A stretch of DNA of 64,000 bases from positions 23,998 to 87,997 of the forward strand of contig JBDRYB010000001.1 of the NCBI GenBank assembly GCA_039803205.1, read 5' to 3'. Position numbers and translations under genes: made by a program. Shown piece by piece: positions 11,830 to 42,583 of this stretch. Within the stretch, counting starts at the first letter, position 1, and each line of letters opens with the position of its first letter. Origin of the DNA: a candidate division WOR-3 bacterium. GTDB lineage: Bacteria > Hydrothermota > Hydrothermia > JBDRYB01. The notes below the pieces were generated by a model that saw nothing but the letters and a program-made list of their open reading frames with translations, made no database searches and had not been told where the DNA came from.

Positions 11830-11843
11830 AATTATATCCTTCA

Positions 11844-12176
11844 TGGAGGCGGGGGGATTCGAACCCCCGTCCAGAGACCCAACCCGTAAAGCACCTACAC
11901 GCTTAGCTCGCCCTATTAACGCTCTGGAGGCTGGGCGAGCGAGCCCTTCCAGAGGTTTGCCCCTCTGTTTAACCGGACCCGCGGGGCACGAGCCCGGCGA
12001 CCCCGGATCTATGAGGCCCTTCTGGCGCGTCCGGGGAGCGCGGCCAGAGAACCTACGCCCTCAATTAGGCGTATGCGTATGCCTTTTCGGCAGTTATCTT
12101 TGCCGCTTTTTACGGGATGCGGCAACCCGACGTGCGCTTTATCGGGTCTATGGCCCTGTCAAGACCATTCGCCCCC
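11844..12176 (-). ncRNA. ssrA: transfer-messenger RNA (tmRNA, SsrA)
   Basis: 5' GGGGGCG pairs with 3' CGCCUCC acceptor stem including a G3:U70 pair, discriminator A, T-arm GGGGGUUCGAAUCCCCC; internal resume region GUAAAAAGCGGCAAAGAUAACU-GCC...UAA; CCA not encoded; the plus-strand ORF 11843..12184 is its antisense shadow. Confidence 0.85.
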
Positions 12177-13766: not shown

Positions 13767-13793
13767 GGAAACAAATTATAATCTTTTCGGCCC

Positions 13794-14822: not shown

Positions 14823-14876
14823 CAAAACCCCCATAATAGCGGGAATATCACCTGGGCAACCATGGAGGGATTGCCC

Positions 14877-15998: not shown

Positions 15999-16038
15999 GG
16001 CTTAATTATAAGGTCTAGCTGGGGTCTGAATTCAAGCT

Positions 16039-16947
16039 CTAGTACCCCACCATTTCCAGAAAGCAATAGCCCCTCTTGTTCCCTTTGGTTATCCGACAAG
16101 CGCCCTCCCATATGAGAGGCCCGCGCATCATCCTGAAGAACTGATCCCTCACAATAGCCTCTGTTGTTAATTCAATATCCGGATCCGGAACCGAGATGTG
16201 CCAGGAAAGGGGGCATCTTCCGGTGGAATCACCCGCGATCCAATAGTCTCCAAGGGGTTCGGCCTTGAATTTCTTTATTCGCGAGACCTCGCCATTTCTG
16301 TCAATGTATGTGCCAAAACTGCGATCCTCATCGCGAAACTGCCAAAGCATCATCTCGGTGGTGTCCTCAAAACGGAACGAGAACCAGGCATACCTGCCCC
16401 CGGTTTCGCCCCACTGGTGATCCATCCAAGCGTCTCCCCGGAGAAAGAGGGTCTCGGCTCCCACGATCATCCTGCCGGAGGAGGCCATCCTAGTATAGGA
16501 GTAATACCAAGAGGGTTCCTCTCCAATCAGAAACACAGAGCCCTCATTTCCGTGGCTCGCCGGGGGCTTGAGGGCCCGGACATCAAGGGATATGGAAAAA
16601 CCTGTGTCCATGAGTCCAAACGAGAAGGCATCTTCTCCAATAGCCTTGAGATAACCCTCTTCTGTTTTTATGTCCAGTGCAAGAGAAGGGTTTTCCGGAA
16701 CCAGCATGGGAAACGCTCTCGTTTTTCGGAAAACCGTCTCGCCTGTCCCCAGGTTCACCATGCTGAAAACATGAACTTCGGTCTGACTAGCCGGGAAATG
16801 AAAGATTATGAAGCAATACGAATATGAGTTTCCCTGGCTGTCCGTCAGGATCCCGCTGAAATACCACCATTCCTTGAGGACATCCTCATGGGGCGCGTGA
16901 TCCTGGGGAAAGATGAAGCCCGCGGCCATAAGAAGGGTGACTAGCAT
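16039..16947 (-). CDS. AttH/CrtC-like (hydroxyneurosporene synthase-like, lipocalin-like) secreted protein
   Basis: WWYFSG motif and overall AttH-like pattern; signal-like N-terminus. Confidence 0.6.
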   Translation of the reverse strand: MLVTLLMAAGFIFPQDHAPHEDVLKEWWYFSGILTDSQGNSYSYCFIIFHFPASQTEVHVFSMVNLGTGETVFRKTRAFPMLVPENPSLALDIKTEEGYLKAIGEDAFSFGLMDTGFSISLDVRALKPPASHGNEGSVFLIGEEPSWYYSYTRMASSGRMIVGAETLFLRGDAWMDHQWGETGGRYAWFSFRFEDTTEMMLWQFRDEDRSFGTYIDRNGEVSRIKKFKAEPLGDYWIAGDSTGRCPLSWHISVPDPDIELTTEAIVRDQFFRMMRGPLIWEGACRITKGNKRGYCFLEMVGY

Positions 16948-23486: not shown

Positions 23487-23822
23487 ATGCGTAAAAAAAT
23501 CAGGCTCATCCACAGGTATTCAAACAGGAAGATGTATGACACGGCAGGGAAAGCCTTCATAACCCTGGGACAGGTCCTGAGGATGATCGCCCAGGGCATA
23601 AGGGTCAAGGTCATAGACAAGGTCTCGGGGATTGATGTGACCAACCTAATAAGGATAAGGGCAATAGCCAATGAGGCAGAGCGTATCGCCAGAAGGATGT
23701 CATCGGCGGCCTCCAGGGACGCGATAAAGCTCCAGGAATTAGCCGTGGAGCTCGGAAACCTCATGAGAGAGATGGCGAGGCTCAGTAGAATAGTGAAAAA
23801 GGAGGCGCAGAATGGAAGTTAA
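23487..23822 (+). CDS. PhaR-like regulator (PHB/PHA accumulation regulator N-terminal DNA-binding domain)
   Basis: HRYSNRKMYDTAGKAFITLGQV matches the PHB_acc_N signature (KkYpNRRLYDT); C-terminal coiled coil. Confidence 0.6.
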   Translation: MRKKIRLIHRYSNRKMYDTAGKAFITLGQVLRMIAQGIRVKVIDKVSGIDVTNLIRIRAIANEAERIARRMSSAASRDAIKLQELAVELGNLMREMARLSRIVKKEAQNGS

Positions 23823-25290
23823 GGCACTATCCCCCAACATATCAAAGCTTCTCAAAGGCGCCAGCGGCCGAGAGATAATAACTAGGCTTTCGGCCCCTGC
23901 CTTCAAAAACAGGGCCGTGAGGAAGGGGCTTCTGCTATACATTAAGTCCCAGATAAACCGAGGGAACTACTCCGCGATCGTTGCGGGGAATAGGCCGCCC
24001 GGAGTCAAAAGGGATGTAGCGTGGGCCGCGTGGGCCTTGTTGAGATCACTAGATAGGGCCATAGAGGACAAAAGGCTCTCTCACAGGTTCGCGGGGAGGC
24101 TGGTTGAGGTTTTTCTGAACAACATGGTGGCAAGCTGGGCCGATAGGGGAGAAATAAGCGGGTTTTTCAAAAACAAGGGGGAGAAAGGCCCGCCCGGTTT
24201 CCTGGTCATCAGCCCCGCTAAGGCGTGCAACCTCAGGTGTCCGGATTGCTACGCGGCCTCAGGCGCAAACCCTGAGAAGCTCAGCGCGCGCGAGTTCCGG
24301 AGGATAATCACGGAGGCAAAGGAGCTCTGGGGGGTCCGTTTCTTCGTGATCTCCGGCGGAGAACCTTTTCTATGGAGGGACGGGGATACCCGGTTCCTTG
24401 ATGTGGTTGAGGAAAACCCCGATTGCTTTTTCATGGTTTATACGAACGGAACCCTGATAGAGGATGAGGTCGCTGACAGGCTCTCAGAGCTCGCTAATCT
24501 TACCCCGGCAATATCCCTGGAGGGCTTTGAGGAGGAGACGGACAGCAGAAGGGGAAAGGGCACATACGAGAAGGTCCTCGGCGCAATGGCAAGGCTCAGA
24601 AAGAGGGGTATACCCTTCGGAATATCCCTCACTGCTACCAAGAGAAATTACAGGCTTCTGCTTTCTGATGGGTTCCTCAGCGAGTTCTTTGAGCGTCAGG
24701 GCGCGACATACGGTTGGATATTCCAGTATATGCCCATAGGCAGGGATCTGGATCTCTCGCTGATGCCAAGCCCGGAAGAAAGGCTATGGATGTGGAGGCG
24801 CGGGTGGGATGTGATAAGGAAGAAGGGTTATTTCCTGATGGACTTCTGGAACCAGGGAACGGTCTCAGCCGGGTGCATATCTGGCGGAAGGCACACGGGA
24901 TACCTTTACATAGACTGGAACGCTAATGTGTATCCGTGCGTCTTTGTTCCCTATGCCGGCGCGAACCTCAGGGAGATATACGCCAGGGGAGGGACGATAA
25001 CCGAGGCTTACGATTCGCCGCTTTTCAGGGCAATAAGGCGATGGCACGACGCTTACGGGTATGGTAAAACAGAGCCCAATAAGCACAAGAACTGGCTCGC
25101 GCCGTGCCTCATAAGGGATCACTTCCGCGTGCTCAAGAGGCTTGTGGAAAGACACGGGGCAAGGCCGGCGGATACGGTGGCCGCTGAGCTCATAAAAAAC
25201 CCCGAACACGGGGCATTCATGGAGGAATACGATAGGGTTTTCTCTGAGCTCACTCAACCGATATGGAAAAAGGAATATCTAGGGCCGTAG
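23812..25290 (+). CDS. radical SAM protein with about 130-aa N-terminal extension and C-terminal auxiliary Cys cluster
   Basis: CNLRCPDC motif; GGEPF; downstream cysteines (GCISGG...YPCVFVP, APCLI) suggest an auxiliary Fe-S (SPASM/twitch-like) region. Confidence 0.75.
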   Translation: MEVKALSPNISKLLKGASGREIITRLSAPAFKNRAVRKGLLLYIKSQINRGNYSAIVAGNRPPGVKRDVAWAAWALLRSLDRAIEDKRLSHRFAGRLVEVFLNNMVASWADRGEISGFFKNKGEKGPPGFLVISPAKACNLRCPDCYAASGANPEKLSAREFRRIITEAKELWGVRFFVISGGEPFLWRDGDTRFLDVVEENPDCFFMVYTNGTLIEDEVADRLSELANLTPAISLEGFEEETDSRRGKGTYEKVLGAMARLRKRGIPFGISLTATKRNYRLLLSDGFLSEFFERQGATYGWIFQYMPIGRDLDLSLMPSPEERLWMWRRGWDVIRKKGYFLMDFWNQGTVSAGCISGGRHTGYLYIDWNANVYPCVFVPYAGANLREIYARGGTITEAYDSPLFRAIRRWHDAYGYGKTEPNKHKNWLAPCLIRDHFRVLKRLVERHGARPADTVAAELIKNPEHGAFMEEYDRVFSELTQPIWKKEYLGP

Positions 25291-27565: not shown

Positions 27566-27575
27566 TTGGGGCTAA

Positions 27576-27657
27576 GCGAGGGTGGCGGAAAGGCAGACGC
27601 GCCAGATTTAGGATCTGGTGGGCTAATCCCGTGCGGGTTCAAGTCCCGCCCCTCGCA
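27576..27657 (+). tRNA. tRNA-Leu (anticodon UAG), type II with long variable arm
   Basis: Manual fold: acceptor GCGAGGG/CCCUCGC, anticodon stem CCAGA/UCUGG with loop UUUAGGA, T-arm GCGGG-UUCAAGU-CCCGC, discriminator A; the track ORF 27566.. runs through it. Confidence 0.85.
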
Positions 27658-27694
27658 TATCCATTCCAGTTCAGAGAAACATTTTGGAATAAAA

Positions 27695-28651
27695 ATGAAG
27701 GTTGCTGTTGTCGGAGCGGCTGGCCTGGTTGGAAGGACCATGCTTCGCGTCCTTGAGAAGAGGGGCTTTCCGGTCTCGGAGCTGGCGGCTTATGACAAGC
27801 TATCGGGAGAAAGTCTGCTCTTCCGCGGCAATAAGCACCTGTGCATCAGGTTAACTCCAACATCCGTCAGGGGTTTTGACCTCGCGCTTTTTTCGGCAGG
27901 TGCGGATGTCTCCCTGAAATACGCGCCCCTGTTTGCCAAAAAGGGCGCGCTAGTGGTTGACAATTCCTCCGCCTGGCGCATGCATCCCAAGGTTCCACTT
28001 GTCGTCCCAGAGGTGAACCCAGAGGCGCTCATGGATATTCCAATGGGCATCGTGGCCAATCCAAATTGTTCAACGATCCAGATGGTCGTGGCTCTCAAGC
28101 CCCTGGTTCGCTTCGGCATAAAGGAGGTCTTCGTGGCGACATATCAGGCGGTCTCAGGGGCTGGAAAGGACGGGATTGACGCGCTCATATCGGAAGAGAA
28201 GGGCAAGAGGTCGTCAAATTCCCCTCACCTCGGCCCAATTCACAGGAATGTCTTGCCCGGAATAGGAAACTTTGAGGAGGGTTTCTACGAGGAGGAGACG
28301 AAGCTCATCCGTGAGACAAAGAAAATAATGGGCCTTGATGTTCCCGTTCATCCGACCGCGGTGAGGGTTCCTGTGATAGCTGGCCACTCCGAGGCCGTTG
28401 CGGTAAGGCTAAAGAAGAAGGTAAGCCTTGAGGAAATAAAAGCTTCTATGGGAGAGCAGGAGGGCCTCGTCCTCAGCGATGGTTTTGTCACCCCGAAGGA
28501 GGCCGAGGGCAAGGATGAGGTCTTTGTCTCCAGGCTCAGATTTTCGCCTGATGATCCGAGGGTTCTCCTGATGTGGGTTGTCTCAGATAACCTTCTGAAG
28601 GGAGCCGCTCTCAACGCGGTTCAAATAGCAGAGAGGGCCCTATTGCGGTGA
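27695..28651 (+). CDS. asd: aspartate-semialdehyde dehydrogenase
   Basis: MKVAVVGAAGLVGRTML Rossmann N-terminus and Asd core; start at internal ATG 27695. Confidence 0.9.
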   Translation: MKVAVVGAAGLVGRTMLRVLEKRGFPVSELAAYDKLSGESLLFRGNKHLCIRLTPTSVRGFDLALFSAGADVSLKYAPLFAKKGALVVDNSSAWRMHPKVPLVVPEVNPEALMDIPMGIVANPNCSTIQMVVALKPLVRFGIKEVFVATYQAVSGAGKDGIDALISEEKGKRSSNSPHLGPIHRNVLPGIGNFEEGFYEEETKLIRETKKIMGLDVPVHPTAVRVPVIAGHSEAVAVRLKKKVSLEEIKASMGEQEGLVLSDGFVTPKEAEGKDEVFVSRLRFSPDDPRVLLMWVVSDNLLKGAALNAVQIAERALLR

Positions 28652-30277
28652 AAGAGGAGCGTCCCCGAACAGCCTCTTCCTCAGCCTGTTATAGTATTGC
28701 CTGTATTCGTCAATGTGGCGGTCATAGGGGAATTCGGGAAGGAGCTCTCCTTTCGCCAGCTCGCGGGCCCGGGCGAGGAGTTCCTCTTTCTCGGCGGGAT
28801 CCCGGGTCGCGTCAGCGAGCCTCATCAGGTTCTCAAGCTCGCCAAGGTCTGTCCAGACATCCTCAAGCTGGTAATAATCCCCCTTTTTGATGAGGAGATC
28901 AGGCCTACCTAAGTTCCGTCTGGCGACCACCATAGCTGTGTAGAGCAACTCCCTGGATCTTTCGTTGTATTTTCTTCTCGGCCATATCAGATAAAAAAGG
29001 TGATCGTAGGGCAATCTGTGTTTTGGTGAAAGGAGCAGATAGACGAATGCTCTGGCTGATTTCTTGTTCCGCCACTCGCTCAAATGAACCTCTCTTCGGT
29101 CGACAAATATCCTCATCTCACCGATCAAATGTGCCCTTATACCGGATTGTCTCCTCTGATCAACCCCATAGGTAAGAAGGGGATAAATTGCCTCAAGAAA
29201 CGGGCCTAAAATGGGATCACGACTCATAGCCCGGTAAGAAGGGGCAAGGGGAACCAAGAATCTCATGGCCTCATGGAAGACCGTACCGCCGTGCTTCCAT
29301 GCCAAAAACGCGGAGGAGAGACCTGTCACGAAAGCCTCTACTGGTTGATAAGCGTTAAGATAATCTCTGGCGGCCTTCAAAAGCTCATGAGGAAGGTCCG
29401 CTTTGTCCTCAGATAATAGGGCCTCTATCTCTCTTAGGGCCGCGAGCTCACCCAGTCCACCTTTTTTAGCAAAGTCCATGCACCTATCCACCATTTCCCT
29501 TGGAGGAGGCTCCAGACCAGCAAATCTAGCGATTTCAAGGGCTTTCGCACAAGGAAACGCTGAGTATGCTGAGCCTATTTCCAGATATCCCAGGGCTGAC
29601 TTCGTGTATAACTTCACCGCTCCTCCTAGATCCCCTAGCATCCTGAGAGCAAAACCCTTGACCTCCAGCAAGGCAGAGAGATGGCGCTTATCCTTTTCCG
29701 TTTTGATCAAGGATCTGAGCATATCAAGAGCCCTTTCCGGCTTGCCAGTTATTATGCTCAGAAGGGCCAGCAGATACCTGGCTCTGGGACTCTTTGACGA
29801 GGTTAGCGTGGGAAGAACTCCTTTTATATCCATGTAAAGGGTGTCGTATTCGGCTCTGAAAAACTTCAGGGAAAGGAGGTTCACTTTGGCAAATGACCAC
29901 AACTCCCTATCCTCAGCGTGCTCAGCTATGTCCAGGGCCTTTAAATAACAGTTCTCAGCAACCTCCATCTCCCCTGTTTGTCTGTAAACTAGCCCAAGCA
30001 TGCCATATATCCTTCCGGTCATCTCCGGTTCGCCGCGAACACGAGCGAGAAGCCTTCTCCCCTTTTTGATGGCTTCTGGAGCACGGGAACCCAGAACTGC
30101 GGCGCAGAAGTCCAAGAACGCAAAACCCAAAGGGTCCTCAGATTTCAGCTTTTCGACATAATTAGCAAAGGCTCCGGGGGAGCCTGTCTTCAGGATCTCT
30201 AGCCCTCTTTCAACCCTTTCTAAGAGCTTCACCCCGATATGATAAAATTCAGAATGGAGCAAATTCAAGTCGCGCAA
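28640..30277 (-). CDS. transcriptional regulator: N-terminal TPR-like domain plus C-terminal SARP/OmpR-like winged helix and short BTAD-like tail
   Basis: C-terminal WRNKKSARAFVYLLLSPKHRLPYDHLFYLIWP resembles winged-helix DNA-binding domains; paralog of 33844..35442; start is TTG, uncertain. Confidence 0.6.
   Translation of the reverse strand: MRDLNLLHSEFYHIGVKLLERVERGLEILKTGSPGAFANYVEKLKSEDPLGFAFLDFCAAVLGSRAPEAIKKGRRLLARVRGEPEMTGRIYGMLGLVYRQTGEMEVAENCYLKALDIAEHAEDRELWSFAKVNLLSLKFFRAEYDTLYMDIKGVLPTLTSSKSPRARYLLALLSIITGKPERALDMLRSLIKTEKDKRHLSALLEVKGFALRMLGDLGGAVKLYTKSALGYLEIGSAYSAFPCAKALEIARFAGLEPPPREMVDRCMDFAKKGGLGELAALREIEALLSEDKADLPHELLKAARDYLNAYQPVEAFVTGLSSAFLAWKHGGTVFHEAMRFLVPLAPSYRAMSRDPILGPFLEAIYPLLTYGVDQRRQSGIRAHLIGEMRIFVDRREVHLSEWRNKKSARAFVYLLLSPKHRLPYDHLFYLIWPRRKYNERSRELLYTAMVVARRNLGRPDLLIKKGDYYQLEDVWTDLGELENLMRLADATRDPAEKEELLARARELAKGELLPEFPYDRHIDEYRQYYNRLRKRLFGDAPLSPQ
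28665..28873. repeat. about 209-bp near-identical duplicated segment (copy A), 3' end of the regulator gene
   Basis: Direct comparison with 33860..34068 shows a constant offset of 5195 and about 6 mismatches. Confidence 0.9.
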
Positions 30278-30327: not shown

Positions 30328-30355
30328 ATGGGCATGTTAAAAAGGAGTGAGCATC

Positions 30356-31882
30356 ATGACAGAAGCATACACGCTAATAGGCCTTTTGGTGTCCCAGGTC
30401 TCTTTTGCTAGATCCTATGGAGGGCCTGATACTGAGAGCGTTCGTGGAATAGTCCAAACAACCGATGGAGGCTTCATTGTTGCGGGAGAGACAAAGAGCT
30501 TTGGGGCAGGGAGCTATGATTTTATGGCCATGAGGCTTCTGAGCACGGGGGATCCCTTCTGGGTAAAGACTCTCGGAGGGACCGGTGACGACAGGGCCTT
30601 CTCAGTAGCTCTGGCTATTGACGGTGGATGCGTCATCGTAGGAGAAACAAAGAGCTATGGCGTAGGGGACTATGATGTTTTGGTTATGAAGCTTGGCCCT
30701 GCTGGGGGATTCCGGTGGGCAAAAACCTATGGAGGGTTATTGCGAGAAAGAGGCACCTGCATCAAGCCAACCAGCGATACGGGATACATCCTCGCGGGAT
30801 GGACGGTTAGCTCAGGCCAGGGGTCCGCGGATCTCCTCGTGATGAAAATGGATTCAGCGGGCAATCGCGTCTGGACCAGGACATTTGGAGGTGACACCTC
30901 TGATTACGCGCATCAAGTGATACAGACCCAGGATGGAGGCTTCTTGGTTGCGGGAACGAGTAGGAGCTTTGGGGCAGGCGACTTTGATTTTCTCGTGCTC
31001 AAGCTCAACAGCTCTGGCACGCTGAGCTGGGCCAGAGCAATTGGTGGCCCGGGCATAGAAGACGCCAGGATCCTGAGCCAGACTACGGATAATGGCTACA
31101 TAGTCGGTGGGTGGACGAACAGCTTTGGCAGTGGAGACTACGATGTTCTCCTTGTGAAGTTGAATTCATCCGGAGGTTTTCAGTGGGCAAAAACCTATGG
31201 GGGTGCCAGCCTTGATTGGGGGACATCCGGCATCCTCCTCCCGGACGGGGGTTTCCTCGTTGTAGGAGTCACTTTGACTTACGATCCCGAAGGCGATCTA
31301 TTTCTTCTCAGGCTGGACCCGGCAGGGAATCCTGATTGGCTTAAGGTTCTCAAGGAGGAGGGAGATGGGGTAAGTGGCGCGACTACTGTGATACAAACTG
31401 GAGATGGTGGTTTCGCGGTTGGAGGTTGGAAGGGTGACTCGTGGGATTTTCTGGTCATAAAGACCGACCAAGACGGAAACTATGACGAAGACTCCAATTG
31501 CATGAAGCCCGACATCCTTACAAGCCTGACCATTATGCCCAATCTTGAAACTCTGACGCTCGGGGCAAGCTGGGTTCCTCTAGTATCCAACCCAAACCCA
31601 TCCCAGAATACGCCCTCCTTGACGATGACAAACGTGACCTGTGAACCTGTTTATGAGGAAGTTGGGGAATCTCTGGTTGAGCCGAATGACATAGTCTGCT
31701 ATCCGATTCCAAGGGCCATTGCGTTTATTTCTTCCTGTGCCGCGGAGATAAGTATCTACTCATCTGACGGGTGCGTGGCCTATTCGGGCACTCTAGAGAA
31801 GGGCAAAAATATGATACCCATTGACCGAGGCATTTACTTTTGGCAGGCAGGAGCTTATAAAGGAAAAGCCGTTGTGAGGTAA
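30356..31882 (+). CDS. secreted beta-propeller repeat protein (SBBP-like repeats) with C-terminal sorting-domain-like tail
   Basis: Multiple repeats of about 50 aa (T.DGGF.VAG.T.SFG.G..D.L..KL...G...W.KTYGG); signal-like N-terminus; C-terminal beta-sandwich-like tail resembling T9SS-type CTDs. Confidence 0.6.
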   Translation: MTEAYTLIGLLVSQVSFARSYGGPDTESVRGIVQTTDGGFIVAGETKSFGAGSYDFMAMRLLSTGDPFWVKTLGGTGDDRAFSVALAIDGGCVIVGETKSYGVGDYDVLVMKLGPAGGFRWAKTYGGLLRERGTCIKPTSDTGYILAGWTVSSGQGSADLLVMKMDSAGNRVWTRTFGGDTSDYAHQVIQTQDGGFLVAGTSRSFGAGDFDFLVLKLNSSGTLSWARAIGGPGIEDARILSQTTDNGYIVGGWTNSFGSGDYDVLLVKLNSSGGFQWAKTYGGASLDWGTSGILLPDGGFLVVGVTLTYDPEGDLFLLRLDPAGNPDWLKVLKEEGDGVSGATTVIQTGDGGFAVGGWKGDSWDFLVIKTDQDGNYDEDSNCMKPDILTSLTIMPNLETLTLGASWVPLVSNPNPSQNTPSLTMTNVTCEPVYEEVGESLVEPNDIVCYPIPRAIAFISSCAAEISIYSSDGCVAYSGTLEKGKNMIPIDRGIYFWQAGAYKGKAVVR

Positions 31883-31900: not shown

Positions 31901-31948
31901 CCCCGGCCGGTAAAATCATTGCACCTCCCGTCCCGGCCGGGGGTTTTT
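31901..31948. terminator. hairpin terminator element, copy 1 (10-bp GC stem, 22-nt loop, T5)
   Basis: CCCCGGCCGG - taaaatcattgcacctcccgtc - CCGGCCGGGG g TTTTT between convergent genes. Confidence 0.65.
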
Positions 31949-31968
31949 ATTTCCCAGATGAGAAGCCC

Positions 31969-33804
31969 TTATTGCCTATCCCAACCCAAACCCCACATTC
32001 CCCTGGTCCAAGCCCTGCCGTTCCTGCAGGGGGTTCCTGCTGGATAGTTGTCCTTGCCTGATAGGTCAAGGAATATGCCAACGCCTCCAGCGTCCCGGGC
32101 CCTGTTCGCATCGCCGAGGCCTATGTCCTCCCTGGCGGAATATGTGTCATCCCCATCAGAATCCACGAAGATCCCAACGGAATTCGTCAAACCTATACCG
32201 AGGCCGCCGGAGACCTGGTAGTTGTCGTTGCCGCGCTTGTCAATTAGCCAGCCAACAGCGAGGTCGTGGCCCTCGCCCTGGGATGGGCCGTATCTTGAAT
32301 AATAGTGATCCGAGCCGGAGTAATCCCCGAGAAGTCCGACCGAGAGGTGGATTCCGGAGCCCTGCGCGTATTGCACAGCGGAATAGAAGTCGTCGCCAGA
32401 CAGATCGAGGAGAATGCCTGCCGAATACCAGTATGAACAGCCCTGCGCGTATACCTCGCCCTGATACAGGTCGTTGCCCTCGCGGTCCAAAAGAACTGAG
32501 ATCCCCCCAGAAGCGCGTGGTCTAATTCCGATTGAATAGCCTTGCGCGAACGCCCTGTAGTTGTGTTCAAGGAGGGGTTTGTGCAGGTATTCTCCTCCAG
32601 CGTAATAGACATCATCTCCCCCCACCTCGTCCAAGATAGCGCAGCCCTTGACCGATGAGAAGGCCTGAGCGCAAGAGAATGCCCTCATAACATCATCCCC
32701 TCCGCCCTCGTGCATGTAGGAGACCCCGAACATGGCCGCGGATTGTGCGAAAAAGCCGGAGTAATAGAGATCGTCTCCGGCCTTATCCGAGAGAAAACCC
32801 GCGCCGAAAAGCCCCATACCCATTGTGTAATGAGGGGCCCGATACAGGTCATCCCCTGAGAGGTCAACCAGGGCACCGTAGCCCATGAGGCCAGCGCCAA
32901 GGGAGACGAAATCTTCAGCCAGATAAGCGTCATTGCCGCAAAGATCAATCACGGCCGAGAGGGGCCTCCCCAGAAACCCAACCGATCCCCCAGGCCTCCC
33001 GTAGTAGGCGTCTGAGCCACCCTTGTCCAGTATAAGGTGATATAGGGCTGTGGTCTCGGCCGGATGAACATCATCCCCTTCTCCTTTGACCAAAACCCTC
33101 CACTGGCCAGCGGAATAGCTGCCCTCAGGAATTCCCTGTGAGAACATCGTGATCTCCTCTACCCCCATTGAGAACGCTAGGGCTCCGAGGGCTAGCTCAC
33201 GCCAATCAACCAGAGCCGCCAACTCCAGTATCCTTGAAGAGTCATCGCACCAGGCTGTGTCCACCGGAAACCCAAATTCCCTGAGCAGACAGCCCCGCAG
33301 AGTGTCCAGAAGGGTATCACCCTCGTCCGCCCAAAGGGAAAGGGAGTAGTAGAGGAGGGTATCAATCTGGGGCCTGCTCAGCCGCGAAAAGGCTTTTTGC
33401 CTGTGAGCATCAGCCTCGTCCCAGGAGGCTCTGAGGTATGCGAGGCCAGCTTCCCATCCCTTTTTGCCCGCCATGGCCTTTTCAAATCTCTTTCGCATCT
33501 CGTTCGTATCCTTGGGAGAGAGCCCGACATCGAGAAGGGAAAAGCCGAGGAACATGGTGGATGTCGGATTACCGGTTGATCTTGCTATTTCGGCCCTGCA
33601 GGAGTCAGCAAAATGAGGCACATCCATGGGCTTCGCCATCAATCTGTCAACCGTCTTGAGCCTGAATGAGTCGCGGTCGGCCCAGTCCTTGTTGTATGAG
33701 AGGTCCTCTGGGGCCAGATTAATGTAAGCTAGGGCCTGGATGATGGCACTTGTTTCGGCTGTATCAAGGAGAAACTGCGAGAGAAGCAAAAGCGTCATGT
33801 TCAA
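31969..33804 (-). CDS. secreted repeat protein (short G/D-rich repeats, possible beta-helix)
   Basis: Repeated pattern of about 22 aa (G.D.Y....Y.QG.G....G.L.D.SG.D.Y); hydrophobic N-terminus. Confidence 0.5.
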   Translation of the reverse strand: MNMTLLLLSQFLLDTAETSAIIQALAYINLAPEDLSYNKDWADRDSFRLKTVDRLMAKPMDVPHFADSCRAEIARSTGNPTSTMFLGFSLLDVGLSPKDTNEMRKRFEKAMAGKKGWEAGLAYLRASWDEADAHRQKAFSRLSRPQIDTLLYYSLSLWADEGDTLLDTLRGCLLREFGFPVDTAWCDDSSRILELAALVDWRELALGALAFSMGVEEITMFSQGIPEGSYSAGQWRVLVKGEGDDVHPAETTALYHLILDKGGSDAYYGRPGGSVGFLGRPLSAVIDLCGNDAYLAEDFVSLGAGLMGYGALVDLSGDDLYRAPHYTMGMGLFGAGFLSDKAGDDLYYSGFFAQSAAMFGVSYMHEGGGDDVMRAFSCAQAFSSVKGCAILDEVGGDDVYYAGGEYLHKPLLEHNYRAFAQGYSIGIRPRASGGISVLLDREGNDLYQGEVYAQGCSYWYSAGILLDLSGDDFYSAVQYAQGSGIHLSVGLLGDYSGSDHYYSRYGPSQGEGHDLAVGWLIDKRGNDNYQVSGGLGIGLTNSVGIFVDSDGDDTYSAREDIGLGDANRARDAGGVGIFLDLSGKDNYPAGTPCRNGRAWTRGMWGLGWDRQ

Positions 33805-33843
33805 AGGTTAAACCAGAAGGAGGCTGGAAGGCAAGGACGGCTT

Positions 33844-35442
33844 TCAGGTCTGATTATCTCCGAACAGCCTCTTCCTCAGCCTGTTATAGTATTGCCTGTA
33901 TTCGTCAATGTGGCTGTCATAGGGGAATTCGGGAAGGAGCTCGCCTTTCGCCAGCTCGCGGGCCCGGGCGAGGAGTTCCTCTTTCTCGGCGGGATCGCGG
34001 GTCGCGTCAGCGAGCCTCATGAGGTTCTCAATCTCTCCAAGGTCTGTCCAGACATCCTCAAGCTGGTAGAAGTCGCCTCGTTTGGTGAGCAATTGTGGTT
34101 TGCCCAGATTCCTGCGGATAGTGTAAATAGCAGTATAAAGCCACTTCCTCGTCCTGGCGTCGTATCTCCTCCTGGGCCACAGCAGATACGCAAGGTGATC
34201 CTGGGATATTCTGTGTTTAGGCGAGAGCAAGAGGTAGAGCAGAGCCATCAACGCCCTTGAGTTTCGCCACGCCCTAAGGGAAACCTCTTCCCCATCCACC
34301 TGGAGCATGAACTCACCAAGCAGGCTCGCCCTCACGCCCTGCACTGTCCTTTCGCCCTTCCCATATCTAAGCAGGGGTTCCACGCTGATCATGAATTCTC
34401 CTAGCAAAGGGTCGCGCCTGAACCCTGGGTGAAGAGGCAAGAGGGGCGCGAGTAACTTGAGGATCTTCGGGAAAACCGGGTGGTCGTCTTGCCATGCAAA
34501 AAGGGCTGCTGTGAGGCCTGTAAGGATGACCTCTATGTTCTGGTTGACCCTATAGTATCCGAGTGCGGCGTCAAAAAGGAGCTCGGTGGATCTTTTGGGG
34601 TCCTCACACAGGAGTGCTTCGATCTCCTGGGCCCCTGCCTTCTCTCCTGACGAACCCCTCCTGGCAAGTGCCAGACATCTCCTTACAAGCTTCTTGGGAG
34701 GAGGCTCCAGCCCAGCGAGTCGCGTGAGCTCAAGAGCCTTGGCACAAGGGAAGGTCGCGTAGGCAGAACCGAATTCAATGGCGATGTTCATGGACTCCAC
34801 ATATAGATCCCTCGCCTCCTGTAGTTTCCCCATCATCCTGCTGGCCAATCCCTTCATCTCTGTAGCACCCAAAAGGACTATACTGCCGCCCTCGCTGATG
34901 ATGGAATCCAAGAGTTTCAATGCCTTCTCTGGGTTTCCACGGATTATCTCAAGTGCGGCCACTAGGTACTTGGCACCCCCGGTGATCTCTGGACTCCTCA
35001 CCCGCGCGAGGAATCCCCTTGCTTCGTTGTAAAGCGGTTCGTATTCAGCTCTAAAGAATCTGTTGGTCAGAAGTCTCAATCTTGCAATGGAGGCCAGGGT
35101 CAGGTCTCCCGCCTGTCCGGCCATATCCTCTGCTCTAACAAAGTATCCATCGGCTGCATCCAGTTCTCCTATTAGTTCGTAAGCGGTGCCAAGGCAGTTG
35201 AAAAGAAAACTCGCAAGCCTGGGCTTGCCCGAAACTCTTGAAATGAGCCTGGTTCCTTTCCTTATGGCGCTAGAATTGTGATTGTAGACCGCCAGGCGAA
35301 CCTCCAGTAGTTCCGCGGCCAGAAGGTCTTCAAGCTTAAGGCAACGAATGTATCTCATTAAGTCATCCAACTGGCCTGACTTCATCATTGTTAGGCCGCG
35401 TTCAATCCTATCCAAAGTATCCACGTCTAGAGTATAAACCAA
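33844..35442 (-). CDS. transcriptional regulator paralog (TPR-like plus SARP/OmpR-like winged helix)
   Basis: Same architecture as 28640..30277; last 70 aa almost identical; start is TTG, uncertain. Confidence 0.6.
   Translation of the reverse strand: MVYTLDVDTLDRIERGLTMMKSGQLDDLMRYIRCLKLEDLLAAELLEVRLAVYNHNSSAIRKGTRLISRVSGKPRLASFLFNCLGTAYELIGELDAADGYFVRAEDMAGQAGDLTLASIARLRLLTNRFFRAEYEPLYNEARGFLARVRSPEITGGAKYLVAALEIIRGNPEKALKLLDSIISEGGSIVLLGATEMKGLASRMMGKLQEARDLYVESMNIAIEFGSAYATFPCAKALELTRLAGLEPPPKKLVRRCLALARRGSSGEKAGAQEIEALLCEDPKRSTELLFDAALGYYRVNQNIEVILTGLTAALFAWQDDHPVFPKILKLLAPLLPLHPGFRRDPLLGEFMISVEPLLRYGKGERTVQGVRASLLGEFMLQVDGEEVSLRAWRNSRALMALLYLLLSPKHRISQDHLAYLLWPRRRYDARTRKWLYTAIYTIRRNLGKPQLLTKRGDFYQLEDVWTDLGEIENLMRLADATRDPAEKEELLARARELAKGELLPEFPYDSHIDEYRQYYNRLRKRLFGDNQT
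33860..34068. repeat. about 209-bp near-identical duplicated segment (copy B)
   Basis: Matches 28665..28873. Confidence 0.9.
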
Positions 35443-35479
35443 TTGGGGAATCCACTGCTATATGCGCATTTGTCCTAAC

Positions 35480-35514
35480 TTGCTAGAGTTTTGCTAGAAA
35501 ACCCTACTTATAAT
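35480..35514 (+). promoter_or_regulatory. direct repeats TTGCTAGA at 11-bp spacing followed by a TATAAT -10 box
   Basis: TTGCTAGA at 35480-35487 and 35491-35498, TATAAT at 35509-35514, then GGAGG RBS and ATG 35551. Confidence 0.5.
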
Positions 35515-35550
35515 TTAGGGCCTTATGAAAAAGAGACACGGAGGTGTCAG

Positions 35551-37155
35551 ATGATAGGGATGATAGGAATCTTTATCGGTGCAACCACGGTCAACTGGCC
35601 CTGCTGGGGCGGAGACCCGGAGCGCCAGGGATTGCAGACCACTCCAGGAGCGTTCATAAGCGCTCCTTCAACAAAGTGGAAAGTCCAGACCTACCAACTC
35701 GTCAGGTGGGAATTCTCAGCGATAGCCGATGTTGACGGCGACGGCCAGATGGAGGTCCTCGTAGGATGCTACAACGGATACCCCGGCTTCTTTTGCATCA
35801 ATGGCTCCACGGGCACAGTTGAGTGGTCGGTTAACACATACCTAAGCGGAGTGCTTGCGGGTCCGGCCGTAGCTGATGTGGACAACGATGGCCAGAATGA
35901 GGTGATCTTCGCTAGCAGTGGTTCTGGTGCGGGAGACGATACGGTCTATTGTTACAGCGGAATGGGCTCTCGGAAGTGGGCCTTTTGTAATCCTTCTTCT
36001 GGGAGATACTGGTCCTCGCCGGCCATCGTTGATCTAGATGGAGACGGCAATATGGAGGTGTTAATAGGCAATTCTGACGGGGGGACAGACACTCTGAGCA
36101 GAAGAAGCCTCTATTGCCTGAATGGCTCTAATGGCACCCAGAAGTGGTCATACATTTCAGGCAACTCGGTGGACTGTGCATCCCCATCTGCGGCTGATGT
36201 TGATGGCGATGGCAAGCTAGAAGTGCTCTTCGTGAACTGGGCTAATAGGCTCTTCTGCATCAGCGATACCGTGGTGGCCGGCAACGACACATGCAGGGTG
36301 GAGTGGACATACCCATTCGGTGCTAGCGGTGGGATACAGTGCACCCCGGTTCTTCTCGATCTTGATGGCGACGGTAAGATGGAGATAGTTACTGCCAACG
36401 CGAATTTTAACTCTAATAACCTCTACTGCTTGAACACAGCCACCATCTCAGGCAACGATACAGCGGTTGTCAAGTGGACCTTCTCTGCTGGAAGATATAT
36501 ATACTCCTCTCTATCCGCCGCAGACGCTGACGGAAATGGTATCATAGATGTTTTCGTTGGTAGTTGGGACTCCCTATTATACTGCCTGGACGGAGCAACT
36601 GGCGCCAAGAAGTGGCAATTCGGAAAGGTGCCGGAGATACTCTATACACCTATATCAGTGATGGACGCGGACGGCGCTCATCCCAGCGGCGACCCTGGGC
36701 TTGAGGTTCTTCTTACAGCCAAGGACACCCTATACTGTGTGAACGCGGAGGATGGCTCTCTGCTTTGGAAAGCGAGGGTGGCGCCCCGTGTCAACACACC
36801 GTTCTCAGGGGACATAGACGGAGATGGGGCTTCTGAGATAATAGTCGGTGCAGACAGCGCGTTGTACGCGCTTGATACAGCAAGTCCGGTTTACGAGGGC
36901 ATAGGTGACAATAACAACAACGGAGACCTCGTCCTGTTCCGGTTCACAAACAACCGCTTTTATCTTTATCTGCCAGAAGAGGATGGGATCTCAATCGCTC
37001 TTTACGACGCTGGAGGGCGATTCGTTAAAAGTATCTTTGAAGGCCATCTGAGCTCTGGTAGCCACAACTTTGAGCTGAGTTCGGAGGCCAAGGGGGTCTA
37101 CATCGCTGTTCTCAGGCACAACGAGGGCATAAAGACCCTGAAGATAGCGAGGTAA
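35551..37155 (+). CDS. secreted FG-GAP/PQQ-like beta-propeller protein with C-terminal sorting-domain-like tail
   Basis: Repeated D(V/L)DGDG..E(V/I) and LYC(L/I)...G motifs; hydrophobic N-terminus; C-terminal tail similar to that of 37245..38753; start at ATG 35551 after GGAGG. Confidence 0.6.
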   Translation: MIGMIGIFIGATTVNWPCWGGDPERQGLQTTPGAFISAPSTKWKVQTYQLVRWEFSAIADVDGDGQMEVLVGCYNGYPGFFCINGSTGTVEWSVNTYLSGVLAGPAVADVDNDGQNEVIFASSGSGAGDDTVYCYSGMGSRKWAFCNPSSGRYWSSPAIVDLDGDGNMEVLIGNSDGGTDTLSRRSLYCLNGSNGTQKWSYISGNSVDCASPSAADVDGDGKLEVLFVNWANRLFCISDTVVAGNDTCRVEWTYPFGASGGIQCTPVLLDLDGDGKMEIVTANANFNSNNLYCLNTATISGNDTAVVKWTFSAGRYIYSSLSAADADGNGIIDVFVGSWDSLLYCLDGATGAKKWQFGKVPEILYTPISVMDADGAHPSGDPGLEVLLTAKDTLYCVNAEDGSLLWKARVAPRVNTPFSGDIDGDGASEIIVGADSALYALDTASPVYEGIGDNNNNGDLVLFRFTNNRFYLYLPEEDGISIALYDAGGRFVKSIFEGHLSSGSHNFELSSEAKGVYIAVLRHNEGIKTLKIAR

Positions 37156-37161
37156 AAACAT

Positions 37162-37224
37162 GACCGGCCGCGGAAACTTCGCACCCCCGGCACCTCCCGG
37201 ATGGACCGCGGCCGGTCCGGTTTT
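37162..37224 (+). terminator. hairpin terminator-like element (12-bp GC stem, 32-nt loop, T-rich tail)
   Basis: GACCGGCCGCGG ... CCGCGGCCGGTC perfect inverted repeat followed by cggTTTTg; loop contains gcacctcccgg as in the two other hairpin elements. Confidence 0.5.
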
Positions 37225-37244
37225 GTGAAAACAAGGAGATTACA

Positions 37245-38753
37245 ATGTCTGACATGTATATCATAGGAATGCTGGCCTCCCAAATCCTTGGGACCTGGCC
37301 TATGTGGGGCTATAACCCAGCACACTGGGCTGTCCAACCGGTGCCTGGCACTCATACAACTGCTCCGGTTATGAAGTGGAGTATCTCAACTGGTGATCAG
37401 GTTCAGTGGCTCTTTTCTGCCACAGGTGATGTTGATCGTGATGGCAGAAATGAGGTTCTGGCTGGCTCTTTTTCTGGAACTTTTTACTGCTTGGACGGAA
37501 CCACCGGGGCAACCAAATGGAGCTTTAACGTCGAATCCGAATCACCGATAGAAACCTGCCCGGCTCTTGCGGACATGGCTGGAAATGGTTCAGTAGAGGT
37601 AGTCTTCGCCACTTGGGGCGGAGAAGTCTATTGCCTTGATGGGACGGACGGGAGCGTAAAATGGCAATACGTAACCACCTACTACGATCAATACCACCAC
37701 GGCCCGGTTGTCGTTGATTGCGATGCTGATGGTGATCTGGATGTTGTTATCGGAAACATATATGGAAGTCTATACTGCTTCGATGGTGAGACGGGAACGC
37801 TGATCTGGAACGCTAACATGAGCTCCACAGAAAACTCTTCTCCTGCCGCCGGTGATATAGATGGAGATGGCAAGATAGAGATAGTTATAGGAGGCTCATC
37901 GGGGACCTATTCTTTGAACGGTTCAAACGGAGCCTTGGAGTGGTTGGCTTCAACGGGTATCTGTGCTAATTCATCTCCAGGAATAGCTGACTGCGATGGA
38001 GATGGTCTCGCTGAGGTGATTATAGGTTCTGAGGATTATAATATCTACTGTCTTGATGGTCAAACCGGAGCCGAGAAGTGGCGTTATTCTACCGGAAACA
38101 GGGTTTGGTCTTCTCCTGTGATCCTTGATGCTGACGGAGACGGGCTTCTTGAGATAATAATAGGGAGCTTTGACGGCTACGCTTACTGTCTGAGCGGGGA
38201 ATCCGGAACCCTCCAGTGGAGAACGCAGGTCGGCGACATCCGCGTGGGCATCCCTGCTGGGGATGTGGACGGCGATAACAGATATGAGGTGATCATAGGG
38301 AATACTAGTGGATACACATGCCTCAACGGTGAGGACGGCTCTGTTCTTTGGAGATCAGCACCATCTAGCGGCGGTAGGTCCGTTTACCTCGCGGATGTTG
38401 ACATGGACGGGTGTGTTGAAATTGTGGGTGGGTCAACCGGTTATGATATATATGTGCTTGATGATCCCGGAAACTCGTCGGGTTGTATGAGTATGGGAAA
38501 GGATGAAGAGGGGTATGGCCCAGATTCTCCTGAATTCAAGCCCATGGGTAAAAGTTTATATCTTTTTCTCCCCGAGGATGAGCAGGTTTCTCTGAGCCTA
38601 TACGATGCCTCAGGTAAGCTCGTTCAAAAGGTATATGATGGGGTCCTGAGGCAGGGAAGTCACACCTTCAGCCCCAACATAAACGCTAAAGGTATCTACT
38701 TCGCGGTTATGAGGTATCAGAAAGGGATGAAAACCCTGAAGATTGTGCGATAA
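37245..38753 (+). CDS. secreted FG-GAP/PQQ-like beta-propeller protein with C-terminal sorting-domain-like tail
   Basis: Paralog of 35551..37155; repeated D.DGDG and YCLDG motifs; C-terminal ...KGMKTLKIVR tail. Confidence 0.6.
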   Translation: MSDMYIIGMLASQILGTWPMWGYNPAHWAVQPVPGTHTTAPVMKWSISTGDQVQWLFSATGDVDRDGRNEVLAGSFSGTFYCLDGTTGATKWSFNVESESPIETCPALADMAGNGSVEVVFATWGGEVYCLDGTDGSVKWQYVTTYYDQYHHGPVVVDCDADGDLDVVIGNIYGSLYCFDGETGTLIWNANMSSTENSSPAAGDIDGDGKIEIVIGGSSGTYSLNGSNGALEWLASTGICANSSPGIADCDGDGLAEVIIGSEDYNIYCLDGQTGAEKWRYSTGNRVWSSPVILDADGDGLLEIIIGSFDGYAYCLSGESGTLQWRTQVGDIRVGIPAGDVDGDNRYEVIIGNTSGYTCLNGEDGSVLWRSAPSSGGRSVYLADVDMDGCVEIVGGSTGYDIYVLDDPGNSSGCMSMGKDEEGYGPDSPEFKPMGKSLYLFLPEDEQVSLSLYDASGKLVQKVYDGVLRQGSHTFSPNINAKGIYFAVMRYQKGMKTLKIVR

Positions 38754-38769
38754 TTCGCCAAATTAAAAA

Positions 38770-38816
38770 GCCCCGGCCGGTAAAATCATCGCACCTCCCG
38801 TTCCGGCCGGGGTTTT
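38770..38816. terminator. hairpin terminator element, copy 2 (near-identical to 31901..31948)
   Basis: CCCCGGCCGG - taaaatcatcgcacctcccgtt - CCGGCCGGGG TTTTT; 2 loop mismatches versus copy 1; between convergent genes. Confidence 0.65.
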
Positions 38817-39772
38817 TACACCTCCTCAGCCCAGGCCTCCCAGCACCAACTGTTCTCCGCGAACCAGGAAACGGTCTCCGAGAGCGCCTGATCAAAACTG
38901 AGCAAGGGCTCCCAGCCGAGCGCCTTTATCTTCCCCGAATCCATAAAATACCGGACATCGTGCCCAGGCCTATCCTCTACATGCTGAATGAGAGCATGGC
39001 TTTTCCCTAGGAGATCAAGTATCCTCTCCGCAACCGAGATGTTTTCTTCCTCGTGACCAGAGCCTATGTTGTAGACCTCGCCAGGGGATCCCTTCTCAAG
39101 AACAAGTAAAATAGCCCTCGCTATATCATCTGCCCAGAGCCACTCCCTCCGCTGTTTCCCCGTGCCGTAGACCGGCAGGGGTTTGTCCAGGATGGCCCTC
39201 AAGGTCATCCTCGGGATGAACTTCTCCGGATGCTGGAAGGGACCAAGGCCGTTGCACGGCCGGACGACTATTGCCTCGATGCCGTAAGTTTTCTGGTATG
39301 CCCTGACGAACGCCTCAGCCCCGACCTTGCTCGCTGAGTATGGCGAGGAGGGCAAAAGGGGCCAGTCCTCCCTTGCCGAGCCTTTCTCAACCGGGCCATA
39401 GACCTCATCCGTTGAGATGTGAAGGAAAAGCCCCTTCTTTTCCCACGCGAGCCTTGCGGCCTCCAAGAGGGTCTGGGTTCCTAGGACATTCGTCCTTATA
39501 AAGCCTCCGGGCCTCGCTATTGACTTATCAACATGGGTCTCAGCGGCAAAGTGCACGATAGCATCGTGATCAACGAGGAGGCCAACGGCAAGGTTTTGGT
39601 CCAGGATGTCGCCGTGGACGAAGTGAAAATGGACACCCTTGAGCCTCCTCATATCCCCAGCGTATGTGAGCTTGTCCAAGACGGTTATCTCCCAACCAGG
39701 TCGCTCGCGCGCGGCAAGTCGCACGAAAGCTGAACCGAGAAAACCAGCGCCGCCAGTGACTATAACGCGCAC
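38816..39772 (-). CDS. rfbB: dTDP-glucose 4,6-dehydratase
   Basis: MRVIVTGGAGFLGS Rossmann N-terminus, YSASK catalytic motif, RmlB-like length. Confidence 0.85.
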   Translation of the reverse strand: MRVIVTGGAGFLGSAFVRLAARERPGWEITVLDKLTYAGDMRRLKGVHFHFVHGDILDQNLAVGLLVDHDAIVHFAAETHVDKSIARPGGFIRTNVLGTQTLLEAARLAWEKKGLFLHISTDEVYGPVEKGSAREDWPLLPSSPYSASKVGAEAFVRAYQKTYGIEAIVVRPCNGLGPFQHPEKFIPRMTLRAILDKPLPVYGTGKQRREWLWADDIARAILLVLEKGSPGEVYNIGSGHEEENISVAERILDLLGKSHALIQHVEDRPGHDVRYFMDSGKIKALGWEPLLSFDQALSETVSWFAENSWCWEAWAEEV

Positions 39773-42468: not shown

Positions 42469-42490
42469 CTGAAAACATTTTGAAAAATAG

Positions 42491-42515
42491 GGCCGGCCGA
42501 AAGGTCGGCCTTTTT
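42491..42515 (+). terminator. Rho-independent terminator
   Basis: GGCCGA-aagg-TCGGCC hairpin followed by TTTTT, 22 nt after the OmpA-family stop. Confidence 0.6.
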
Positions 42516-42583
42516 ATTATACCCGGAAGTATCCCTCGCTGACGCGGGGTTGAACCGGGTTTCCTCTCCGGTTTACCATTTCG

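Follow-up and report, generated by a model that had tools for sequence, protein, structure and literature searches.

The question raised by this locus is whether three hairpins that share a loop motif are three independent terminators or copies of a single structured element, and what such an element would do. The hairpins, termed Elements 1, 2 and 3, lie on the + strand of a 64,000-nt stretch of DNA from a candidate division WOR-3 bacterium (GenBank assembly GCA_039803205.1, contig JBDRYB010000001.1, positions 23,998 to 87,997), which is called the window; positions given without a locus name are those of the window. The hairpins belong to one family that is attached to genes for beta-propeller proteins, both in the window and in related genomes. 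Its members are probably intrinsic-terminator-type hairpins at the 3' ends of the propeller mRNAs, restricted to a WOR-3 lineage, with an exposed C-rich loop that most likely pairs with Shine-Dalgarno (SD) regions.

As the original prediction had described, Elements 1 and 2 carry an identical 10-bp stem, 22-nt loops that differ at 2 positions (TAAAATCATTGCACCTCCCGTC and TAAAATCATCGCACCTCCCGTT) and a T-run (GTTTTTATTT and TTTTTAC, respectively), and each stands between convergent open reading frames (ORFs). They start 18 and 17 nt past the upstream stop codon (Table 1). The third hairpin, said to combine a different stem with the same loop motif, was confirmed as well. Its 12-bp stem encloses a 32-nt loop that contains GCACCCCCG and then GCACCTCCCGG, with GCACCTCCCG at 37190-37199. 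Element 3 begins 6 nt past a stop codon between two tandem + strand genes, has a weak T-run (CGGTTTTGTG) and ends approximately 27 nt ahead of the start codon of gene 37245. The terminator shape of Element 2 is bidirectional, because AAAAG/TTTTT extends its stem to 15 pairs. The structured stem-plus-loop pattern was matched twice in the window and not once in 100 shuffles. The RNA folding that had been proposed as a check returned stable structures for Elements 1, 2 and 3 (predicted energies of −23.1, −28.6 and −37.2 kcal/mol; z = −2.3, −5.3 and −2.7), with the loop motif unpaired in each. The bare 10-mer GCACCTCCCG, with up to 1 mismatch allowed, was found 8 times in the window where 6.2 occurrences were expected, and is not enriched; the significance resides in the motif within a hairpin and not in the 10-mer.

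A covariance model (R1) was run unfiltered over all 64 kb of the window, and recovered Element 1 (67.7 bits, E = 1.8e-19), Element 2 (65.2 bits, E = 1.1e-18), Element 3 (46.8 bits, E = 7.6e-13) and no other element. The next scores (29.8 and 24.1 bits) came from the elements' own reverse strands, and the best unrelated match, at 20 bits from stem similarity alone, was an ordinary short-loop terminator at 42486-42521. The GAAA loop of that ordinary terminator (42489-42512) shows that short loops are also in use in the window, and the other terminators in the window likewise have short loops unrelated to that of the elements. Element 3 is a diverged relative of Elements 1 and 2, all three being homologous members of one structured family.

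Further members were found in the same metagenome-assembled genome (MAG). Loci L146 and L147 (contigs of GCA_039803185.1, locus-tag prefix ABIM74), reached through paralogs of a TPR-like protein, were taken as part of the MAG of the window, since the window's TPR-like protein (33844-35442) matches ABIM74_04225, from a candidate division WOR-3 MAG, at 100% identity. The same proteins are also carried by SRR27730023 and SRR27730025. The covariance model located six more elements in these two loci, each directly 3' of a propeller gene. At least nine elements are therefore present in the approximately 107 kb made up by the window, L146 and L147, all of them 3' of propeller genes, and none was found after any other gene of this sequence. 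Propeller genes of the same MAG that are packed 10-60 nt from the next gene are without an element. An absence of further genomic copies, along with a lack of transcript 3' ends at the elements, had been named as the result that would tell against the family; the six copies, together with those in relatives, are the opposite outcome. What stands of the original prediction is a small repeated structured element, in the form of a homologous family with a conserved loop. The copies are not freely dispersed, being tied to propeller genes, and the choice that had been posed between an element and terminators falls away, since the two are compatible and the conserved loop is an extra on a GC stem and T-tail.

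Other genomes supplied about 11 copies in five contig sets. Contigs that encode homologs of the propeller protein gave elements in L015 (three), L016 (two), L017 (two, in tandem), L018 (one) and L145 (two, one of these degenerate), and a metagenome pattern scan gave L096 and L064, with two copies each, after genes ending ...GVYLW...KGKAVVR*. Every copy lies beside a gene or gene remnant of the propeller family, and nearly all are directly 3' of it in a fixed orientation; L015a is 3' of the C-terminal remnant of a truncated paralog, and L145a comes after a 142-aa ORF and a short way upstream of a propeller gene. A recent tandem duplication, which also copied approximately 130 nt downstream, has left L015b and L015c identical. 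The tandem elements of L017 (1611-1657 and 1688-1732) stand 30 nt apart after one propeller gene, with different stems (GGCCGGCCGGA and AACCCGGCCGGA) and the same loop core. Elements are sometimes lost, as decayed copies attest: L020 retains only a 3' half (5850-5875, GTACCTCCCATTCCGGCCGGGGCTTTTT), in L145b (6148-6199) AGCTCC replaces ACCTCC, and in L096b (1734-1784) the 5' arm is damaged. The closest homologs of the propeller protein are from candidate division WOR-3, at no more than 44% identity, and an exact look-up of the 502-aa protein gave no record. No element was found beside the propeller homologs of L014, L019, L143 and L144, loci that also have no TPR-like neighbour, and the hairpin family therefore seems confined to a sub-clade.

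Wider searches agreed with this narrow distribution. No element was found at the other genes of the fetched related loci. In 185,579 representative genomes the loop word AAAATCATNGCACCTCCCG never occurred as a hairpin; its 13 matches there were rejected as chance, being reverse complements of SD+ATG gene starts without hairpins. Among viral contigs there was no true element, the two matches being chance in high-GC sequence. The metagenome scan used the pattern CCGGCYGN{3,20}GCACCTCCCN{0,12}CGGCYGG, which is too permissive for GC-rich soil metagenomes, and gave at least 120 matches, nearly all chance in high-GC coding DNA; L096 and L064 were the only real ones among the matches listed. In Rfam 15 no family matched: only a tmRNA and a tRNA reached gathering score in the window, and between 31800 and 38900 no match fell on the elements even at E ≤ 10. 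The family is undescribed and without an Rfam counterpart.

Evidence on the nature of the stem was taken from alignments of the elements. MAFFT slips register in the palindromic 5' arm of the 20-element alignment A5, and pair statistics were accordingly drawn from alignments A3/A4 and a hand count. In the 15-element alignment 91% of the stem cells are paired, with compensatory changes at four positions, and paired cells fall to 27-57% in slid registers; the covariation score was reached by none of 500 shuffles. On the sense strand of the upstream gene the aligned 10-pair core has 6 G.U cells and 1 A.C cell, and the hand count over the main helices of the 20 elements gave about 22 G.U against at most 1 A.C. 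L147b by itself contributes four G.U pairs and a U-A swap. Because one-sided changes are nearly all G.U and not A.C, the stem is judged to be selected as RNA, in the sense orientation of the upstream gene. Total folding energy favoured the sense over the antisense strand in 12 of the 20 elements (mean −0.8 kcal/mol), which is uninformative, and the count of G.U against A.C is the more useful measure. The GC-only stem is built round CCGGCCG, and its central CCGGCC is invariant, which suggests that the sequence of the stem as well as its shape may matter. An uptake-sequence-like excess of CCGGCCG was considered and rejected (13 matches outside the elements, 11 expected).

Two forms of the element appear to occur within the MAG. 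Elements 1 and 2, L146b, L146c and L146d combine the CCCCGGCCGG stem with a good T-run at convergent junctions. In Element 3, L146a, L147a and L147b the stem is of the GGGCCGGCCGYGG type, with 12-13 bp, and the T-run is weak; these elements lie between tandem paralogs with little room for a promoter; from this layout they look like leaky terminators or processing or stability sites. Hairpins with long loops may be frequent at the 3' ends of this organism's genes. In L147 a peptidase S8 gene (13618-16341, − strand), a type IX secretion system (T9SS) cargo gene outside the propeller family, is followed by an unrelated hairpin with a 12-bp stem and a 26-nt loop (AACCCTGATCTT...AAGATCAGGGTT).

Fourteen of the 15 aligned elements contain CACCTCC in the loop, as do 18 of the 20 of A5, where the full GCACCTCCC core is intact in 17; L147b carries the variant CACCCUCC. 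Each of the columns G(C)ACCTCC(C)G either does not vary or has a conservation of at least 90%. Across genomes the block (Y)GCACCUCCCGU of approximately 11 nt is nearly invariant, and the remaining loop is only A/U-rich. In nearly all minimum-free-energy folds CACCUCC is unpaired. Purifying selection is indicated to act on the loop, because the core has been kept while flanking proteins have diverged to 35-45% identity between genomes and flanking DNA cannot be aligned; a plain terminator needs no such conservation of its loop. The claim that CACCTCC equals the anti-Shine-Dalgarno sequence (anti-SD) holds in so far as the heptamer matches the canonical 3' end of 16S rRNA, the organism's own 16S not being in the window. 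Two other roles for the loop were tried and rejected. A minus-strand mini-ORF, with GGGAGGTGCRATGATTTTACC as SD followed by ATG, would leave a spacer of just 2 nt, and L018, L096, L017b and L064 lack the ATG. Pairing of the loop with the stop-codon region (GTGAGGTAA) is not conserved, Element 2 having GTGCGATAA. Another CACCTCC at 38819-38825, 7 nt past Element 2 and within the 3' end of the convergent epimerase gene, is probably coincidental.

In the reading that is favoured here the hairpin would be transcribed as the 3' end of the mRNAs of one beta-propeller family, several members of which are T9SS cargo. The GC-only stem and U-rich tail would end or attenuate the transcription unit and protect its 3' end, and at convergent junctions the A-run upstream and the T-run downstream would terminate transcription on both strands. 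The stems have 10-15 pairs and are followed by a T-rich tail in most copies (a T-run follows Elements 1 and 2, L015a and L146b-d), as in intrinsic terminators with their GC stem and T-rich tract; the A-run/T-run symmetry at convergent junctions is present in Element 2 and L146d, and in L015 and L017 every tandem paralog is provided, after the hairpin, with a TATAAT-like box and an SD of its own. From the stem with its T-tail, the position past the stop codon, this symmetry and the downstream promoter and SD we infer termination activity, and the elements are probably terminators with an added regulatory role.

For that role the loop CACCUCC would act as an exposed C-rich seed that pairs with GGAGG-type SD regions. 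Candidate targets would be the next paralog on the same transcript, the 5' end of the same mRNA or, if the hairpin acts as a stable decay fragment, other mRNAs with a strong SD, and pairing would tune the translation or stability of a highly paralogous family. This SD-pairing role is one that we infer from predicted structures and duplexes. All of the propeller genes have strong SDs of the GGAGG(UG) type, complementary to CACCUCC; a strong SD was scored for about 13 of the 54 window genes, a count that is inflated because the heuristic picks the best SD among candidate starts. A predicted duplex of −21 kcal/mol joins the loop of Elements 1 and 2 to the SD and AUGAU of gene 35551 (rank 1-2 of 54). 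There are experimental precedents for both arrangements: in the icaR mRNA of Staphylococcus aureus the motif UCCCCUG of the 3' untranslated region (UTR) pairs with the icaR SD (PMC3868564), and in the terminator loop of LhrC a CUCCC motif binds the SD region of an adhesin mRNA (PMC4132741).

Several observations weigh against the combination of termination and SD pairing. In predicted duplexes the own-gene initiation regions of Elements 1 and 2 rank only 26-45 of 54, so that the SD complementarity of the loop is generic, and loop variants and neighbouring SDs were not found to covary consistently. Conservation of the 11-nt motif is tighter than an SD pairing of 5-7 nt would need, which fits a protein or another specific partner at least as well. 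The loops were correctly described at the outset as unusually long, at 15-32 nt where intrinsic terminators typically have 3-8 nt, and a terminator-consensus scan of the elements found only sub-hairpins inside the long loops. T-runs are weak in Element 3, L015b, L096a, L064a, L146a and L147b. Several elements start only 3-8 nt past the stop codon, so close that the 5' arm would lie under a terminating ribosome. Finally, sampling was biased, most loci having been fetched for their propeller genes, and the sole unbiased background consists of the other genes of those loci and of the window.

A protein partner is the serious rival to SD pairing, and we hold it to be possible if unlikely. The loop would then be bound in a sequence-specific way by a protein such as a binder of C-rich RNA (of the KH type or another), an RNase, or a factor for 3'-end processing or localisation, with no SD pairing involved, and the hairpin would still be a 3' end or terminator. 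The (Y)GCACCUCCCGU block of approximately 11 nt, longer and stricter than generic SD pairing requires, speaks for such a site, as do the lack of own-gene specificity in the predicted duplexes and the invariant CCGGCC at the stem centre, which suggests that sequence as well as shape is read. On the other hand no candidate binder is consistently encoded beside the elements, the conserved neighbour being the TPR-like protein that is sometimes annotated as a SARP-type regulator, and the exact anti-SD heptamer at the core would have to be a coincidence.

It is improbable that the elements are ordinary terminators, alike merely through common descent with duplicated genes or through gene conversion, and that the loop is functionless. 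They do travel with a paralogous gene family, L015b equals L015c through recent tandem duplication, and there are degenerate copies and a 3'-half remnant (L145b, L096b and L020 5850-5875). The loop core is nevertheless intact in 17 of 20 elements, although the paralogs beside Elements 1 and 2 have approximately 20% protein identity and the orthologs 35-45%, a divergence at which neutral sequence would be randomised and at which flanking DNA is unalignable. From the stop codon to the hairpin and beyond the T-run no alignable similarity was found, so that the near-identity of Elements 1 and 2 is not a by-product of recent gene duplication. Other terminators of the window, such as that with the GAAA loop, moreover have short and unrelated loops.

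That the loop is a functional mimic of the 16S rRNA 3' tail, acting as an SD sponge or as a decoy for anti-SD-sequestering proteins and cross-regulating the strong-SD propeller paralogs, is very improbable. WOR-3 is a member of the FCB group. Ribosomes of Bacteroidia are blind to the SD, since bS21, bS18 and bS6 keep the anti-SD sequestered on the 30S platform (PMC7797042). The mimic would be an abundant 3' hairpin, resistant to nucleases, with CACCUCC on display. If it were real, family-wide translational control would be encoded in terminator loops and could give, for example, mutual exclusion among variant surface proteins.

Least probable of all is a DNA-level explanation, in which the element would spread or recombine as a mobile or palindromic repeat of the repetitive extragenic palindromic (REP) or miniature inverted-repeat transposable element type or as an attC-like recombination site: it is a GC-rich, intergenic, imperfect palindrome with several near-identical copies (Elements 1 and 2 differing at 2 positions), a 3'-half remnant in L020 and a serine recombinase gene beside the L015 array, but it keeps a fixed orientation to one gene family and has no copies elsewhere in the sequence examined, its one-sided stem changes give G.U pairs on the sense strand, where DNA or the opposite strand would have A.C mismatches, CCGGCCG shows no excess outside the elements, viral matches were not real, no GTTRRRY-type attC core is visible, and the recombinase is a neighbour in one locus only.

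To return to the hairpins as 3' ends of propeller mRNAs, the genes to which they are attached were examined. By tblastn the window has exactly three propeller paralogs, and an element is 3' of each. Between the two FG-GAP genes protein identity is 35% (tblastn comparison), and in a three-way protein alignment they are 27% and 20% identical to the remaining propeller gene (30347-31882 in that alignment). Both contain a T9SS type A sorting domain (TIGR04183), at 26.2 bits for gene 35551-37155 and 28.2 bits for gene 37245-38753 against an NCBIfam cutoff of 23. Gene 30356-31882 has its own TATAAT-like box, a strong SD (AAAGGAGTGA) and the C-terminus ...GIYFWQAGAYKGKAVVR.

The second recurring component is a TPR-like protein of approximately 525 aa, repeatedly encoded divergently from the hairpin-bearing propeller gene or genes and 43-53% identical between genomes. 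At least five further paralogs of the window protein at 33844-35442 occur in the source MAG, which has at least seven TPR-like paralogs in all. In the databases some copies bear the annotation AfsR/SARP or winged-helix regulator, all of which suggests a recurring module of regulator, propeller cargo and hairpin. The 611-aa ORF that converges on Element 1 had no Pfam or NCBIfam match; its homology to a 617-aa BTAD/TPR protein in the equivalent convergent position of L146 was considered, and comparison showed no relation. In L015, alone among the loci, a serine recombinase gene with Resolvase/Recombinase domains (7181-8062, − strand) adjoins the propeller array, and the end of L147 (1-227) holds a Cas6 gene fragment.

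The window is bacterial chromosome, with a tmRNA (11841-12176, − strand, tag peptide AEKAYAYA, 153 bits) and a tRNA-Leu(TAG) (27576-27657, + strand). The latter lies within the mechanically listed ORF 27566-28651, which is probably not a gene over its full length. At 25185-25252 an 18-nt inverted repeat (TGAGCTCATAAAAAACCC / GGGTTTTCTCTGAGCTCA, 32-nt spacer) encloses a minus-strand terminator-like hairpin (25199-25214, GCCCCGTGTTCGGGGT + TTTTTT) near the 3' end of ORF 23812-25290.

Table 1. Positions of the hairpin elements, the associated genes and the TPR-like partners; coordinates are those of the window unless a locus is named.
Feature	Position	Strand	Description
Element 1	31901-31952	+	10-bp stem CCCCGGCCGG/CCGGCCGGGG, 22-nt loop; between ORFs 30356-31882 (+) and 31969-33804 (−)
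Element 1, hairpin	31901-31942	+	arms 31901-31910 and 31933-31942
Element 1, loop motif	31921-31930	+	GCACCTCCCG
Element 1, T-run	31944-31952	+	
Element 2	38766-38822	+	stem as in Element 1; between ORFs 37245-38753 (+) and 38816-39772 (−)
Element 2, hairpin	38771-38812	+	arms 38771-38780 and 38803-38812
Element 3	37162-37228	+	12-bp stem GACCGGCCGCGG/CCGCGGCCGGTC, 32-nt loop
Element 3, hairpin	37162-37217	+	
Beta-propeller gene	30356-31882	+	delta-60 / DUF5122-type repeats, 508 aa; followed by Element 1
FG-GAP/PQQ-like beta-propeller gene	35551-37155	+	534 aa, SD GGAGGTG; followed by Element 3
FG-GAP/PQQ-like beta-propeller gene	37245-38753	+	502 aa; followed by Element 2
611-aa ORF	31969-33804	−	convergent with Element 1
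TPR-like protein	33844-35442	−	532 aa, divergent from the propeller genes
Second TPR-like paralog	28640-30277	−	divergent from propeller gene 30356; same module layout
TPR-like partner, L015	8293-9867		
TPR-like partner, L016	174-1742		
TPR-like partner, L018	4293-5894		
TPR-like partner, L145	2361-3947		
TPR-like partner, L146	10001-11566		
TPR-like partner, L147	10001-11575		

As a rule the loops of terminators are regarded as free of constraint; in this family a motif identical to the anti-SD has been kept nearly unchanged across diverged genomes and is confined to one expanded family of secreted propellers. To our knowledge no RNA regulation has been studied in the WOR-3 phylum, and the family is a candidate 3'-end regulatory RNA motif in this uncultured phylum, without a counterpart in Rfam. 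It offers a concrete, mutable target of 7-11 nt for cross-talk between 3' ends and SDs outside the Firmicutes, and the hairpin can serve as a marker for one recurring module that joins propeller genes with the TPR-like genes transcribed divergently beside them.

Among known systems, integron attC sites have RYYYAAC ... GTTRRRY core sites at the outer ends of an imperfect palindrome and lie next to an integron integrase. Read by eye, the ends of the elements are CCCCGG.../...CCGGGG with A/T runs and contain no GTTRRRY, and no integrase is adjacent in the annotated part of the window (28.6-42.5 kb). REP sequences and bacterial interspersed mosaic elements (BIMEs) are dispersed over many unrelated operons and can act as terminators or mRNA stabilisers. 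The elements resemble them as short, GC-rich, imperfect palindromes in 3' intergenic positions with several copies per genome, and differ in their confinement to one gene family (9 of 9 copies in approximately 107 kb are 3' of propeller genes, and the same holds in related loci), their long, conserved, asymmetric loop and the RNA-type (G.U) variation of the stem. A gene for a REP-associated tyrosine transposase (RAYT) was not noticed in the Pfam labels of the loci that were fetched, the genome not having been searched for one. Rho-independent terminators share with the elements the GC-rich stem, the T-rich tail and the position just after the stop codon, together with the bidirectional symmetry of Element 2 and L146d. 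Unlike those of ordinary terminators, the loops have 15-32 nt, the loop and part of the stem are conserved in sequence across genomes, and the hairpin is tied to one gene family.

Closer parallels are found among RNAs that pair with SDs. Like the icaR mRNA, which may serve as a model for cis regulation by a 3' end, the propeller mRNAs would have in their 3' region an anti-SD-like motif able to pair with an SD. In icaR this is a single long 3'-UTR (>100 nt) with UCCCCUG upstream of the terminator (PMC3868564), whereas the elements have the motif within the loop of a terminator-like hairpin, in copies that recur throughout a paralog family, and own-gene pairing is not favoured in the predictions. 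C-rich (UCCC/CUCCC) loops that pair with SDs are known from RNAIII and the Rsa RNAs of S. aureus (PMC2790875), LhrC of Listeria (PMC4132741) and 6C of Mycobacterium tuberculosis (PMC6486639). Those are independent small-RNA genes of Firmicutes and Actinobacteria with experimentally shown targets, whereas the elements would form the 3' end of protein-coding mRNAs in a WOR-3 bacterium and their pairing is predicted. The resemblance lies in an unpaired, C-rich, anti-SD-like motif in a hairpin loop, which in predicted folds of the elements is complementary to the propeller SDs, and it is closest for LhrC, where the motif is in the terminator loop and the target is the mRNA of a surface adhesin.

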